Positions 37,893 to 46,374 of a DNA stretch of 64,000 bases are shown here, piece by piece. The translations under genes and the position numbers were made by a program. How positions within the stretch are numbered: the stretch's first letter is position 1; each line of letters opens with the position of its first letter. The DNA lies in the NCBI RefSeq assembly GCF_048403405.1, contig NZ_CP183129.1. One strand, 5' to 3'. Source of the DNA: Escherichia coli (GTDB taxonomy: Bacteria > Pseudomonadota > Gammaproteobacteria > Enterobacterales > Enterobacteriaceae). The notes under the pieces are model-generated. The model ran no database searches. It saw nothing but the letters and a program-made list of their open reading frames with translations, and had not been told where the DNA came from.

Positions 37893-38219
37893 TCAAGGAC
37901 GTGACGGCGTAAAGATAAATTGTCTCTTCACTCCCTGACAGGGGCGATTCTTTTCAAATCGCCATTTCGCCATGGCCTTCACCACTTCATCACGAAACAA
38001 ATTATGAGGCTCTGAGCGGAGAAAAACGATCCGTGTCACAGTCCCATCAGCACCAATATCGAACTTAACCTCAACCAGCCCCTTGATATAATTTGCTGCA
38101 GCATATTCCGGATATCGTGGATACACCGTCACTAATTGCCGGGGCTCATCAGCTTTTTGCTGCGAGCATCCCACTGCCAGGACAGATAACAGAAAAAGTA
38201 GTAAAAGGCGTCTTTTCAT
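37893..38219 (-). CDS. lipoprotein with TonB C-terminal-like domain (108 aa)
   Basis: Signal peptide + lipobox (LLLLFLLSVLAVGC, Ser at +2); body aligns to TonB C-terminal domain (YPxxA...G.V.VKFDxxxDGxV...P...F..EV..AM..WRxE). Confidence 0.6.
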   Translation of the reverse strand: MKRRLLLLFLLSVLAVGCSQQKADEPRQLVTVYPRYPEYAAANYIKGLVEVKFDIGADGTVTRIVFLRSEPHNLFRDEVVKAMAKWRFEKNRPCQGVKRQFIFTPSRP

Positions 38220-38529: not shown

Positions 38530-39003
38530 TTATTTCAGGCACTGAGTGCGGATATAGTCCTGTGCCCCTTCCAGTTGCTTGTGCATCGTCATCAGCCGCT
38601 CTCTGAGGGTGAAATAATCCCGTGTAACGGTGTCTGCCAGTTGGGGGCCGGTTGCATTATCCACGCCGGAGGTGGTGGGGGCTTCACGCACGGAGCCTGG
38701 ACAGGTGGCGTTGATCCGCAGGCGCTTACGACCAGCGGCAACGTCAGCGCGAAGAGTTTCATTTTCAGCTCTCGCATCGGCTAATTCCCTCGAGTATTTT
38801 GCATCGAGCGCAGCAACATCGCGCTGGCGCACCTGCATATCAGTAATGGTTGCGTTCGCCAGCTTCAGTTCACTGGCTTTGTTATCGCGCTGCGCTTTGT
38901 AGGTAATCGCGTTATCACGGTAATGGTCTGTTGCCATCCACAGCGCACCACAGGCCACCAGCAGAATAACGATAAACGCGGAAAGCATTCGGTTTATGTT
39001 CAC
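38530..39003 (-). CDS. Rz: i-spanin Rz
   Basis: 157-aa ORF similar to lambda Rz ([15 protein letters not shown] ... [10 protein letters not shown] ... [17 protein letters not shown]). Confidence 0.9.
38592..38777 (-). CDS. Rz1: o-spanin Rz1 (embedded in +1 frame of Rz)
   Basis: 61-aa ORF with lipobox and proline-rich core [14 protein letters not shown], as in lambda Rz1. Confidence 0.8.
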
Positions 39004-39131
39004 CCCAGCAACCCCGACGAAGACAACATCATCCAGGCCATGGAAAGAAAAAGAGCAACCAGCATTAGTGAAAATGAAATGCCGACAATTACACAGAGGA
39101 TCTTCGCCAGCGTTATGAGTTTGTCTGACAT
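39000..39131 (-). CDS. hypothetical small membrane protein (43 aa)
   Basis: Strong RBS (GGGAGG) before ATG; single hydrophobic TM segment; sits between R and Rz. Confidence 0.35.
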
Positions 39132-39145
39132 GCTTAATCCTCCCT

Positions 39146-39292
39146 TCACGATTTCAACGCAATGACCAGTTTTGCCAGCCCATACAGCATCGGGGACACA
39201 GCAACACCGACCGCCACCCACTTAATGGCAAAAGCCAGTGCTCTGCTGATGTCATCAGTTACAGGCGCTTTCAGTTCAAGGCCATTTTTCAT
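39146..39292 (-). CDS. hypothetical small membrane protein (48 aa)
   Basis: Short ORF with one hydrophobic segment between R and Rz; start uncertain. Confidence 0.3.
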
Positions 39293-39484
39293 AGTCAACC
39301 TCAACAGAATTCGTTTACACTTCGCCATGTTCTCCCTTGCCTTACTCAAGGTCAGAAACACAAAACCTCGCTTGGTGCCAACAAACGGGGTTTTTACTTT
39401 TATTCACTTACGTTTCGCCAGTTCGCAGGATTTCGTGTTATCCGCCCGCGTGGCCATTCCTCATTTTTCAGCAAAATATTCTGC

Positions 39485-40018
39485 TTATCTGTCGATACCC
39501 CAGCACGCCAGCGCGCTCTCCTGGTCACGACGGGATACCTGACCGTAACAGTTGTTTGAACGAATACGGCAGTCTCTGCCACCGTCCTTAATCCACCAGC
39601 GAATCGCTTCGCAGGCACCTTTTCGATCACCAGCATTAATTCGTCTGTAAAACGTCGACGGGAAACACTTACCGGGATCAATGTTGTACGGACAGAATGA
39701 CGCGATCCCCGCTTTCTGGGGTTCGGTCAGCGGCACTCTGATGTTTTTCTCCACCCACGCCAGCGCTTTATCACGCTCAATGGCGTTAACCTGGTCGCAT
39801 TTTTCCTTCGACAACTTCATGCCCGGAACGACAGGTTTGCCATCCACCATGATGGCACCACGGCAGATGGTCCAGATACCTGCACCATCACGGTATGCCG
39901 TGGTGTGGTTGCCTTCCTTTTCATCCAGAAACTGGTCGAGAATGTCAGGCGCAGGCGCACCAGCGGCAATCAGCGCCAGAACGGCAGCCGACAGGCCGTA
40001 TTTGATTTTGGTGTTCAT
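39485..40018 (-). CDS. R: SAR-endolysin (GH24 lysozyme R)
   Basis: 177-aa ORF; N-terminal Gly/Ala-rich weakly hydrophobic SAR segment then T4-lysozyme-like E...D...T catalytic pattern (EKEGNHTTAYRDGAGIWTICRG). Confidence 0.85.
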   Translation of the reverse strand: MNTKIKYGLSAAVLALIAAGAPAPDILDQFLDEKEGNHTTAYRDGAGIWTICRGAIMVDGKPVVPGMKLSKEKCDQVNAIERDKALAWVEKNIRVPLTEPQKAGIASFCPYNIDPGKCFPSTFYRRINAGDRKGACEAIRWWIKDGGRDCRIRSNNCYGQVSRRDQESALACWGIDR

Positions 40019-40054: not shown

Positions 40055-40945
40055 CTAAATACGCACTTTAAGATAAGTCAGCCCCGGATGAAGCCAGTAA
40101 GCCGGCACTTTTTTAAAGGGTGGAGTATTAAAATCACGAAGAAGAGCCTCCCGCACAATTGCATCCTTATCAGCACCACTGGCCAGCGCTTCAATCTCAG
40201 CGGCTACCTGAAGATATCCCATGCAACGGCCAACGCGCTTCATCAGCCCCTGCTTTTTATTGTTCTTCAGGTAATCAATGGCAAATTCAATGAGCTCCTC
40301 ACTGTGCTGGTGCGATGGAGGTGTTACTTTCCCATTTTCTGAGATGGTTATTTTCCCAGCATCACCGGATACAACAAAGGATGGCCGGTTACACTCCCAT
40401 TCCGGGTCACTGAAATTATCATTATGAATACTGAAACACTCTGCGAGATTTCTGCTCATCACTTTCCGACAATAATCGTCAAACGCAGCAAACTGCTTTT
40501 CATCGCCAGAAGGCACCAATATCGACCATTTCTTATTCAGCTCAACGACGTAGCTCTCCAGTTTTTCAATACGTGATTCAACATCATCTTTTTCTGACCG
40601 CAGTGTTGACGGCGGCATCTTCAGAGAACAAGTAATTCTTCCCGGTAGCTTTCCTTTGTAGGTTATCAACATATCCTGCGCCTCTAAAATTACGGGGCGC
40701 TTTTCCGGCAACGGTTCGTTCCATTCACATAACCCGGCAGCAACATCCATGAAAAACTGCTTCGCCTGCTTTTTCGCCTCAGCTTCGTAAAACTCCAGCG
40801 TGGCACCTTCAGTACGGTCAAGACTAATCGCCACATCTGGCAACAACAGCGACGCTTGCCCGTCACCTTCCGACTTCACAGTAACAGTAACCTTATCCCC
40901 GTAATTATTTATCCCCTTAACAACCAGTTCATATTTTTTATTCAT
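40055..40945 (-). CDS. hypothetical protein (296 aa) between holin and endolysin
   Basis: Start abuts holin stop with GGGGAGAG RBS; no family recognised by inspection. Confidence 0.55.
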   Translation of the reverse strand: MNKKYELVVKGINNYGDKVTVTVKSEGDGQASLLLPDVAISLDRTEGATLEFYEAEAKKQAKQFFMDVAAGLCEWNEPLPEKRPVILEAQDMLITYKGKLPGRITCSLKMPPSTLRSEKDDVESRIEKLESYVVELNKKWSILVPSGDEKQFAAFDDYCRKVMSRNLAECFSIHNDNFSDPEWECNRPSFVVSGDAGKITISENGKVTPPSHQHSEELIEFAIDYLKNNKKQGLMKRVGRCMGYLQVAAEIEALASGADKDAIVREALLRDFNTPPFKKVPAYWLHPGLTYLKVRI

Positions 40946-40949
40946 CACT

Positions 40950-41165
40950 TTACTCTCCCCGCGCCGCCTTACGCCGGTCCTCTTTGATTTTGAAATACAG
41001 GTTAGTCAGATATGTCAGCAGCCCAAACAGCAGACTCCCCAGCACGCCTATTGCCGCCCACTGAGACGGGGAAACCCTGTCCAGCAACTGCAGGAACCAG
41101 TAGCCCGTTCCCACCGCTGACGTGGTGTATGACACACCTGTTGTGATTTTTTCCATCTGGTACAT
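40950..41165 (-). CDS. S: pinholin (S21-type holin, dual-start MYQM)
   Basis: 71-aa ORF nearly collinear with phage 21 S ([45 protein letters not shown]); two in-frame starts. Confidence 0.85.
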
Positions 41166-41472
41166 ACCCCGTCTCCCGTTATCCGGAAGCTGACAACAAT
41201 AAAAAAGCCACCAGTTAAGTACTGATGGCTCTGATAACTCATGCAGGCGTCTCAGACGCCCCACTGACACTACCGGTGAGTTTAACGATACCTTCCATTT
41301 GACTGGCTCACTTTTTATGATGATGCCGGTGCATTTATCTCCAGCACCAGACTTTCTATCTCAACGCCATACGTTGCATTTTTGGTAATATCCGTCAGCG
41401 TCAGTGCATTTAGTCCCACTGCCAGACCGTCTTTTATGGCCTGGAATGCCGGGCCAGTACGATGACGTAGTA

Positions 41473-41661
41473 TCACTCCGGCTCAGTTGCACCACTGACC
41501 ACCACATCACCTTCTGCTGCAATCGCCTGCATCAGGGTATAAGGGGTTATGGCCACCGGACTACCAAACGGCTGCCAGCCCTCTTTCAGTTTATGTGTCA
41601 GCTTTTCCGCAAGATCTGACGGCGACGCCGCCCTGACAACATCATAGTGTTTAAATGCCAT
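41473..41661 (-). CDS. small conserved prophage protein (DUF1737-like, assignment unverified)
   Basis: 62-67-aa ORF upstream of holin, a position commonly occupied by a small conserved ORF in lambdoid lysis cassettes. Confidence 0.45.
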   Translation of the reverse strand: MAFKHYDVVRAASPSDLAEKLTHKLKEGWQPFGSPVAITPYTLMQAIAAEGDVVVSGATEPE

Positions 41662-41921
41662 GGTTCTTTCCACCATCTGAAAAATGATTCTTTAAAATAC
41701 CTGACATGTAATACAGAAAAAACACAAAACCATACCTTAAATAAAAACCTCATCATCAAGCAGATATGCATGGATAAACTACAAGACGAGATATAAACCA
41801 CCCTGCATTTAAATAAACAATAAACAACATCAGAAAAATAATTCTGCTCTATGGTTTACAATCAAAAATATCATTTATACTTTTCAGAACATCACCAGCA
41901 AGGCATAAACAAGGAAACTAA

Positions 41922-42257
41922 ATGAAGTGGATTGTGATTGATACAGTTATCCAGCCATCATGCGGAATATCTTTTTCAGTCATATGGAGTAAAATAAAAT
42001 TAATAATCTGGTATCAATCGGATGCTTTCTTACCTCCTGAAAGTATATTTACACTGACTCACACAGGTATCATGCTCAATAACAAAGTGCTACCTGTAAC
42101 CATTTACAACGTAGTACCATTCAATAAAACATTCTGGAATTTAATCAAAAACAGCCAGGAATGCCCTACAAATACAGATAACGTATTGAATGAATGCTTT
42201 AATAACCGTTGCACTCTGCAAATATGTCCTTATGGGCTAAAACAACAAAGTCCATAA
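41922..42257 (+). CDS. hypothetical Cys-containing protein (111 aa) in AT-rich island, opposite strand to late operon
   Basis: AAGGAA RBS 6 nt before ATG; very AT-rich upstream region; no recognisable family. Confidence 0.4.
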
Positions 42258-42270
42258 GGAGTTTACTCAC

Positions 42271-42313
42271 ATCTGACAAAATCAATATAAACAGCCCCTC
42301 CGGAGAGGGGCTG
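42271..42313 (-). terminator. intrinsic terminator (minus strand) upstream of lysis cassette
   Basis: Hairpin CAGCCCCTC-CGGA-GAGGGGCTG followed on minus strand by TTTATATTGATTTT. Confidence 0.5.
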
Positions 42314-42610
42314 GAGAGTGGCGCTATGTGCCATTGCATGGTGCCGGGTGCCTCCCGGTGAATTCAGTACCAGCACCTGAATCCGCGATTATCCCATATA
42401 CCTACTCGCTGATTGCCCCTCCGCACAGGGGGATTCACCATGCCAGTTTCTTTTAACAAACTCCCCGCAAACCAGACAACAGTCAACCGCCTGAATTGTG
42501 AAGTATTTAAAAATTTCTCCCGCTAACTGATACCCGGCTAACAGTCTGGCGTTTTCTTTTTCAGCAACGGGAAAGCAACAACCACCACACCCACCAGCCG
42601 CCCATTTACC

Positions 42611-43036: not shown

Positions 43037-43732
43037 TTAATTGACTTTTGCAATATCTCGTCGTGAAAAGGTCGCTTTTTGTTGCGCTCTTATTTTCACG
43101 GAGCAAATCAAGGATTCTCTATCGAGGCGCTTAAAAATATCGCACATCTCACGCCAGTAGTTCGCATAATTATGGCTCCAGTTATCAGGCTTAACTCCAC
43201 ACAGTCTGGCAAGCTCCTGTCTCTGGTAGACCTCACACCCGGTAACCCATCCTCTGACATCCTGTGCCGCCAGCCAGATCAACTTCTTCACACGCTCCAG
43301 CGTTTTCACTGCAATTTTTCTGGAGCCGGACTGAGTTTTAAATTCACTCCACCCCCACTGCGTTATCGCGATCTGATGCTCCCAGCAAATGTTTCCGCCA
43401 TAACACCACAACAACCACGCCTTCTGATGTTCTTCCAGTTCCAGAACAGCACGCCGCCACGATGATGTTGCAAACTCAACAGGACTGACCAGCGCAATTG
43501 ATGAGCCTTTCGCCAGTGATTGTTTACCCTGGATCGGGGGATTATCCCGCGTGATCATTTTTCCGGTTACCTCATCGCGGTAACGAATTTTTTTGCGTCT
43601 GTAACGCCCTGTATCGAACAGGGCATTTTCCTGCCAGGCTTCCAGCTGGCATTTTGTCGACCCACTGAGATCTGCAGTGGCAATCATGAGTTGCTCACGA
43701 ACAAACTGTAAATACTGGTTATTCATGCACAC
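43037..43732 (-). CDS. Q: late antiterminator Q-like protein (QuuQ/phage-82 type)
   Basis: 231-aa ORF directly upstream of candidate pR'/tR' region and downstream of rusA; Cys/His-containing; family assignment by position and recalled similarity. Confidence 0.6.
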   Translation of the reverse strand: MCMNNQYLQFVREQLMIATADLSGSTKCQLEAWQENALFDTGRYRRKKIRYRDEVTGKMITRDNPPIQGKQSLAKGSSIALVSPVEFATSSWRRAVLELEEHQKAWLLWCYGGNICWEHQIAITQWGWSEFKTQSGSRKIAVKTLERVKKLIWLAAQDVRGWVTGCEVYQRQELARLCGVKPDNWSHNYANYWREMCDIFKRLDRESLICSVKIRAQQKATFSRRDIAKVN

Positions 43733-45960: not shown

Positions 45961-46116
45961 TTACTCCTCAGGTTCGTAAGCTGTGAAGACAGCGACCTCC
46001 GTCTGGCCGGTTCGGATTCGTACCTCGCAGAGGTCTTTCCTCGTTACCAGTGCCGTCACTATGACGGTTAAACAGATGACGATCAGGGCGATTAACATCG
46101 CCTTTTGCTGCTTCAT
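45961..46116 (-). CDS. hok: Hok/Gef-family type I toxin (51 aa)
   Basis: Translation MKQQKAMLIALIVICLTVIVTALVTRKDLCEVRIRTGQTEVAVFTAYEPEE is a canonical Hok-family peptide; not in the ORF track (below size cut-off). Confidence 0.85.
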   Translation of the reverse strand: MKQQKAMLIALIVICLTVIVTALVTRKDLCEVRIRTGQTEVAVFTAYEPEE

Positions 46117-46129
46117 AGCCTGCTTCTCC

Positions 46130-46230
46130 TTGACCTTTCGGTCCGTAAGAGGCTAATCTCTATGTGTCGCATAGATATGGCCTCAGATTAATGTTAAGCG
46201 TCTTGCAGGACGCGTAATGTTAACTGGGGC
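46130..46230 (+). ncRNA. sok: expected Sok-type antisense RNA / mok leader region of hok locus (location approximate)
   Basis: By analogy with hok/sok loci the antisense RNA overlaps the hok mRNA leader; exact ends not determined. Confidence 0.3.
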
Positions 46231-46374
46231 TTTTCTCTATCTGCCTTTTGGTGTTCATGCCTGAGACAGATAGCCTCAAGCACCCGCAGTTATTCTACTT
46301 AACTAAGATTTCCCCGCAAACCGTTTTTGTCCGGCACAGTAAATATCCAACTAAACCAATGGCGTTCGCTGTAT

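Follow-up and report, generated by a model that had tools for sequence, protein, structure and literature searches.

A long-form YdfR-family protein with an orphan C-terminal domain is encoded between the pinholin and SAR-endolysin genes of an Escherichia coli lambdoid prophage

What does a 296-aa protein do in the middle of a lambdoid lysis cassette, encoded in the slot between the gene for a pinholin and that for an endolysin of the signal-anchor-release (SAR) type? The question is raised by a 64,000-nucleotide stretch of the E. coli contig NZ_CP183129.1 (hereafter the window), which carries a lambdoid prophage next to potB; the prophage shows collinearity with E. coli MS 69-1 and has all of its late genes on the minus strand. 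An initial annotation, made from the sequence alone, had described a P21/Qin-like cassette interrupted by a 296-aa open reading frame, to which it could assign no family by eye, and had left open whether the product is a lysis regulator, a late anti-host factor, or unrelated cargo. Both the cassette and the position of the frame hold: a 71-aa class II holin, a SAR-type lysozyme, and an Rz gene with an embedded Rz1 are present, and the 296-aa frame lies between holin and endolysin on the minus strand. The features of the cassette, in the order of transcription, are as follows.

40950..41165, minus strand: 71-aa class II (S21-type) holin, MYQMEK..., with Met1 and Met4 (PHROG 9876 and 20; PGAP 'class II holin family protein'; KD19 maximum 1.70)
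40953..40960, minus strand: Shine-Dalgarno-like GGGGAGAG (GGAG at 40955-40958), within the final holin codons and 9 nt before the ATG, read from the sequence
40055..40945, minus strand: gene of the YdfR family, long form, with 296 codons and a TAG stop at 40055-40057 (ORF list, Pfam, PHROG, dN/dS)
39485..40018, minus strand: lysozyme with an N-terminal signal-anchor-release-type segment (PHROG 7 endolysin; PGAP 'lysozyme'; KD19 maximum 1.74 at residue 9)
38530..39003, minus strand: Rz, i-spanin (ORF list; PGAP 'lysis protein', 38530-38988)
38592-38777, minus strand: Rz1, o-spanin lipoprotein, embedded in Rz (ORF list)

The gene is tightly fitted into this cassette. The ORF list gives the frame as 40055..40948 on the minus strand, or 297 aa if counted from a GTG, and the 296-aa product (MNKKYEL...) starts at the ATG at 40945, a start common to all homologs. 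The holin stop codon, TAA at 40950-40952, is followed by 4 nt (AGTG) and then by this ATG, a spacing that recurs in nearly all of 80 related IMG/VR loci; on the other side, 36 nt separate the stop of the 296-aa gene from the ATG of the endolysin gene at 40018. The ribosome-binding site of its own and the position directly at the holin stop, both claimed at the outset, are seen in the GGAG 9 nt before the ATG and the 4-nt gap.

Several other features of the cassette and its surroundings are recorded here as observations in their own right. S21-type pinholins carry their own antiholin through a dual start, as in phage 21, where the dual start of S reads MKSM. The dual start of the holin in the window, MYQM (40950-41165, minus strand), has no basic residue between both Met codons, unlike MKSM, so the antiholin character of the longer holin product may differ. 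The N-terminal hydrophobic segment of the endolysin is rich in Gly and Ala. A terminator-like hairpin with a T-run (41204-41232, minus strand) lies inside the late operon, ≈40 nt upstream of the holin start. Between endolysin and Rz are two small hypothetical frames (39000-39131 and 39146-39328, minus strand), each with a hydrophobic stretch, which may be extra membrane peptides of the lysis cassette. Just downstream of Rz, in the position that bor occupies in lambda, is a gene for a 'TonB family protein' (37893-38219, minus strand) with a lipoprotein-like signal (…LAVGCSQQ).

To what family does the 296-aa protein belong? Residues 1-100 match Pfam DUF1327/YdfR (PF07041) with an E value of 2.1e-40, covering model positions 1-88 of 93, so that a family can be named where none had been apparent by eye. 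The whole protein matches PHROG 1085 end to end (residues 1-296 against profile positions 1-296 of 296, E 1.2e-189), and RefSeq names its relatives 'YdfR family protein'; a search of the 296-aa protein against NCBIfam returned no family. The initial annotation had noted that a shorter ORF occupies this slot in Qin, and this is ydfR, which lies in the order essQ-ydfR-rrrQ between the S21-type holin essQ and the lysozyme rrrQ. The N-terminal domain of the protein in the window is 47% identical to Qin YdfR over residues 1-74, and sister 296-aa alleles that are otherwise near-identical have an N-domain of the Qin type, with 81% identity to Qin YdfR. Because its N-terminus is homologous to that of Qin ydfR, the gene represents an extended form of the Qin ORF and not an unrelated insertion.

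The homology to Qin YdfR (E. coli K-12 cryptic prophage, PF07041, 103 aa) lies in the N-domain. Qin YdfR stops after this domain and one helix, whereas the 296-aa protein continues with a linker of 47 residues, a helical segment, and a conserved C-domain of 112 residues. At 296 aa it thus departs from the single-domain, ≈100-aa size of the YdfR type member and has a long-form architecture within the family. Among the catalogue records closest to it is UniProt A0A376Q4W6, 'Phage protein' (296 aa), whose AlphaFold DB entry is 99% identical; neither this record nor PHROG 1085 differs from it in kind by sequence, and both are catalogue records without a function. The exact protein was absent from a collection of 15 billion sequences, in which the closest cluster is 97% identical. 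The family is already catalogued, as PHROG 1085, without an assigned function, and the locus is not a new kind of system. Overall, we are highly confident that the gene encodes a full-length, long-form member of the YdfR/DUF1327 family, a soluble cytoplasmic protein of two folded modules, which is made from a Q-dependent late transcript and whose translation starts directly behind the pinholin gene.

The domain architecture was derived from an AlphaFold2 (AF2) model built from 49 diverse sequences (pLDDT 73; a run with a shallow alignment gave pLDDT 53). Structure prediction had been suggested as a check on the frame, and the model has a confident N-domain and a confident C-domain (pLDDT of both 73-97). 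Four parts can be distinguished.

40727..40945, minus strand: N-domain, residues 1-73, three beta strands and a long helix, the DUF1327 core (AF2 pLDDT 73-96)
40586..40726, minus strand: linker, residues 74-120, predicted to be disordered (pLDDT below 50; dN/dS 0.68, the least constrained part)
40394..40585, minus strand: helical segment, residues 121-184, with coiled-coil-like heptads (AF2 helices 122-143 and 149-170, moderate confidence)
40058..40393, minus strand: C-domain, residues 185-296, a three-stranded beta meander and four helices (pLDDT 85-97; not in Pfam)

In the helical segment, the hydrophobic fraction at heptad positions a and d reaches 0.88 for residues 118-146, and PDB sequences give weak matches of the GCN4 type only; alignment marks this segment as a hotspot of insertion and replacement between alleles. 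The protein has no transmembrane segment (KD19 maximum 0.75 versus 1.70-1.74 for the holin and the endolysin N-terminus), and the AF2 model contains no hydrophobic helix.

The C-domain is basic (pI 9.2) and carries the motif KRxGRCMGYLQVAAEIEA ... DFxxPPFKxxPxxWxxPGxxYLKxRI, in which G239, P276, and K278 are invariant, and H214, R240, W284, P287, and Y291 nearly so (numbered in the whole protein). Pfam returned no match to it even at E≤10, NCBIfam and PADLOC returned none either, and searches of PDB sequences with two profiles gave coiled-coil or chance matches only (E at least 0.02). With the whole model as query, Foldseek found 38 significant matches in AFDB50, all from the same family, and nothing below E 0.25 in the PDB. 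The C-domain is thus an orphan: it is not described in any domain library, and it has no structural relative outside its own family in whole-model searches. A likeness of its NPPF/DxPPFK motif to motif IV of N6-adenine methyltransferases was considered and set aside as coincidence, since a 112-aa domain of beta meander and helices should not be able to form a Rossmann fold.

The frame has been maintained by selection. It is intact in nearly all of 79 related loci, at lengths of 185-330 aa, with main length classes of 185, 268, 296, and ≈329 aa among the IMG/VR loci. Pairwise dN/dS (Nei-Gojobori) is 0.30 for residues 1-73, 0.33 for residues 121-184, and 0.33 for residues 185-296, against 0.68 for the linker. 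The 296-aa ORF is a real, conserved gene under purifying selection (dN/dS ≈0.3).

Its transcription can be placed with the help of an RNA feature upstream of the cassette.

42283..42472, minus strand: leader RNA, Rfam STnc100 (132 bits versus a gathering score of 47), with a terminator hairpin at 42313-42292

The Q antiterminator gene lies at 43037-43726, and the late leader is downstream of Q. The STnc100 match is probably the leader RNA of the late promoter on which the Q antiterminator acts; it stands ≈1.3 kb upstream of the 296-aa gene and marks the start of the late transcript. A crude promoter scan of the minus strand found no sigma-70-like promoter between this leader and the gene, which makes expression late in infection only, as the initial annotation had supposed, plausible.

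The same region holds further observations. A homolog of the IraM anti-adaptor is encoded on the opposite strand (41922-42257, plus strand) in the late-operon leader, between a tR'-like terminator and a DUF1737 gene, and around it lies an AT-rich island (41550-42300) with a GC content of 0.31-0.39 versus 0.51 for the whole window. The DUF1737 frame of 67 aa, which PGAP calls a pseudogene, is directly followed by a 53-aa frame (together 41315-41676, minus strand), and the pair may be a longer gene that has been frameshifted or truncated; in other loci, the DUF1737 gene is ≈2 kb further away from the holin gene. In the early region of the prophage, at 45961-46285 on the minus strand, lies the toxin gene hokD together with sok antitoxin RNA (Rfam, 107 bits).

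How widespread is the long form, and how is it built from place to place? Sequence searches found 112 representative clusters among 1.84 billion proteins and 515 proteins in a database of 5.8 billion, all of the latter from E. coli, Shigella, Salmonella, or metagenome reads; a third search, with a profile of the C-domain alone, added nothing that was new or carried a name. The range of the family is limited to lambdoid prophages of E. coli, Shigella, and Salmonella. Its distant members, which are Salmonella prophage proteins where the source names them, are 25-45% identical to the protein in the window and have the same architecture of a DUF1327-like N-domain, a helical segment, and a C-domain. 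Because the two-domain form is kept at this distance, it is old and not a recent fusion in E. coli. Opposite-strand HicA/HicB pairs are found between Q and the late genes just upstream of these distant relatives (L007/L010 3458-4467 and L005 3780-4434, in Salmonella prophages where named).

Within E. coli, alleles are shuffled at the module borders. Two types of N-domain are swapped while the remaining backbone stays identical; this slot can also hold the C-module by itself, as proteins of 185-213 aa that begin MNHEEMNQRF, the N-module is found alone as forms of 103-183 aa, and a 305-aa form has a C-terminus of a different kind. N-domain DNA is present in 3157 of 5426 complete E. coli genomes (58%) at 6711 places, and C-domain DNA in 786 of the 5426 (14%) at 969 places, so that the C-domain accompanies roughly a seventh of the YdfR-family loci in these genomes (969 versus 6711 places). 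In loci with the 268-aa form or other variants, an opposite-strand frame of ≈104 aa (PHROG 1853; DUF1823 in one record) lies between the gene and the endolysin gene (L057 3817-4131 on the minus strand, L002 3145-3459, L004 3084-3344); it is absent from the window.

What, then, might such a protein do? A literature search on DUF1327 and on genes placed between those for pinholin and SAR endolysin yielded one paper only, on RNase E. In that work (Gopel et al. 2026, PMC13232886), a two-hybrid screen recovered residues 1-72 of Qin YdfR, a fragment that interacts with RNase E 1-597. Rne1-598 co-elutes with Strep-YdfR, and for a full-length, short-linker YdfR fusion the interaction was seen with Rne1-597 only (PMC13232886). 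DNase-resistant nucleic acid co-purifies with YdfR, a contaminant source of which was not excluded by the authors, and overexpression of YdfR changed few transcripts and left growth unaffected (PMC13232886). Among the three options first proposed for the gene, that of a late anti-host factor would appear to fit these Qin YdfR data best. The best explanation overall, which we put forward tentatively, is that this long-form YdfR acts late, as a soluble protein with RNase E or RNA as its docking partner.

By analogy with Qin residues 1-72, the N-domain of the 296-aa protein would dock on RNase E of the host, at its N-terminal, catalytic half. The helical segment may oligomerize the protein, and the basic C-domain could recruit RNA or another host partner, whereby RNA turnover in the late phase of infection would be altered, for instance for the long late transcript or the mRNAs of the host; such a protein would have neither the membrane nor the cell wall as its target. 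We infer RNase E binding by the 296-aa allele, its oligomerization, RNA binding by the C-domain, and a physiological effect with low confidence. Binding has been shown for the short Qin protein, in one study, and the basic charge of the C-domain is its only hint of an affinity for nucleic acid. The same authors point to Srd of T4 as an earlier case of a phage protein bound to the N-terminal half of RNase E (PMC13232886). The mode proposed for YdfR would be the same, a soluble phage protein contacting the catalytic half of RNase E (PMC13232886). Srd differs, however, in being an early T4 protein that stimulates decay of host mRNA, whereas the 296-aa gene is a late lambdoid one; there is no sequence relationship between the two (hhalign probability 0.1%), and an effect of YdfR on RNase E activity is a proposal. 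A further point against docking on RNase E is that all relatives examined adjoin SAR-type endolysin cassettes, which could tie the protein to such lysis systems instead.

A rival proposal is that of a soluble, cytoplasmic regulator of lysis timing that would act on the pinholin, on the SAR endolysin, or on their synthesis, in the manner of LydB of phage P1. The order of holin, gene, and endolysin is the same in 80 of 80 IMG/VR loci, where the gene adjoins the holin stop and precedes the endolysin, and the Salmonella relatives are also found beside class II holins and endolysins with SAR-like N-termini. P1 LydB, an antiholin without a transmembrane domain that is encoded directly after the holin gene, provides a precedent for a soluble antiholin in this place (PMC9025707). 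The 296-aa gene likewise lies immediately downstream of a holin gene, and its product has no transmembrane segment; LydB, however, has 147 aa and a demonstrated delay of lysis, and the two proteins have no sequence relationship (hhalign probability 0.1%). The wider context weakens the proposal. The full-length Salmonella relatives lie between Q (with a HicAB pair) and the holin, thus on its upstream side, and holins of two different families accompany them. Across loci, the holin and endolysin alleles are 89-100% identical and the alleles of the gene 59-100%, and a single identical holin allele is found with both the 296-aa and the 268-aa form; counted over all forms, identical holin alleles accompany 296-aa, 268-aa, 329-aa, C-only, and N-only proteins. 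Holins and endolysins that are 95-100% identical to one another flank alleles of the gene that span this whole 59-100% range, which means that the gene does not co-vary with the lysis proteins. Moreover, S21-type pinholins already have a dual-start antiholin of their own. Because the Salmonella relatives lie upstream of the holin and identical holins stand beside very different alleles, we regard control of lysis timing as an unlikely role. The conserved feature is an early position within the late operon, beside a SAR-type endolysin cassette, and not the slot between S and R, and a late, host-directed accessory protein is more likely than a core component of lysis.

The third option, mosaic cargo (a moron) with a role in conflict among phages or between phage and host, for instance exclusion of competing phages or inhibition of a host defense, would be unrelated to lysis and to RNase E. 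It draws on the composition of the gene, whose GC content is 0.46 versus 0.54-0.55 for the holin, endolysin, and Rz genes, and on its highly mosaic alleles between nearly invariant flanks, with modules gained, lost, and swapped, including the other C-terminal domain of the 305-aa forms. The extra opposite-strand 104-aa frame in some variant loci and the narrow taxonomic range point the same way. Against this, the protein has no PADLOC match (the best, to PbeC, is at E 0.018 and 11 bits and falls on the coiled-coil stretch), and no promoter of its own was detected, so that expression in the lysogen is not evident. The dN/dS of ≈0.3 indicates purifying selection; diversifying selection, which would be expected at a conflict interface, is not seen. 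A conflict role of this kind is accordingly doubtful.

The most skeptical view, that the frame is a decaying remnant of a YdfR pseudogene as it stands in RefSeq, where PGAP marks codons 1-112 as incomplete and leaves the remainder empty, is very improbable, given a frame that is open across 296 codons, a C-terminal part that is the best conserved across genera, has a dN/dS of ≈0.33, and folds confidently in AF2, and the same 296-aa protein annotated intact in other records. PGAP calls codons 1-112 (40610-40945) a 'YdfR family protein' pseudogene, incomplete and missing its C-terminus, and leaves 40055-40609 without annotation, as it does in MS 69-1; the C-domain is likewise unannotated in every one of the 17 genomes sampled for copies with 99% identity or more. 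An artifact probably underlies the pseudogene call, namely alignment to short forms of 112-114 aa, such as that in phage YYZ-2008.

The proposed docking on RNase E or RNA can be taken further. Long YdfR proteins could be RNase E adaptors, in which a swappable N-terminal dock is joined to an orphan, possibly new-fold, basic C-domain that selects RNAs or a host factor, so that RNA decay is reprogrammed late in infection, including that of the lysis-cassette mRNA and hence the timing of lysis. This extended proposal is a long shot. If it were true, it would bring a principle like that of RapZ or Srd to temperate lambdoid phages and would give a function to a gene family present in over half of the complete E. 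coli genomes.

YdfR-family genes sit inside one of the best-studied cassettes of phage biology, including that of Stx-converting phages, and it is the long form, not the 103-aa K-12 protein, that matches the two-domain architecture common to Salmonella. The RefSeq pseudogene call hides a conserved C-domain in hundreds of genomes. Together, the long-form architecture, the orphan C-domain with its conserved residues, and the lack of co-variation with the lysis proteins direct experiments toward the binding of host factors and away from the control of holins.
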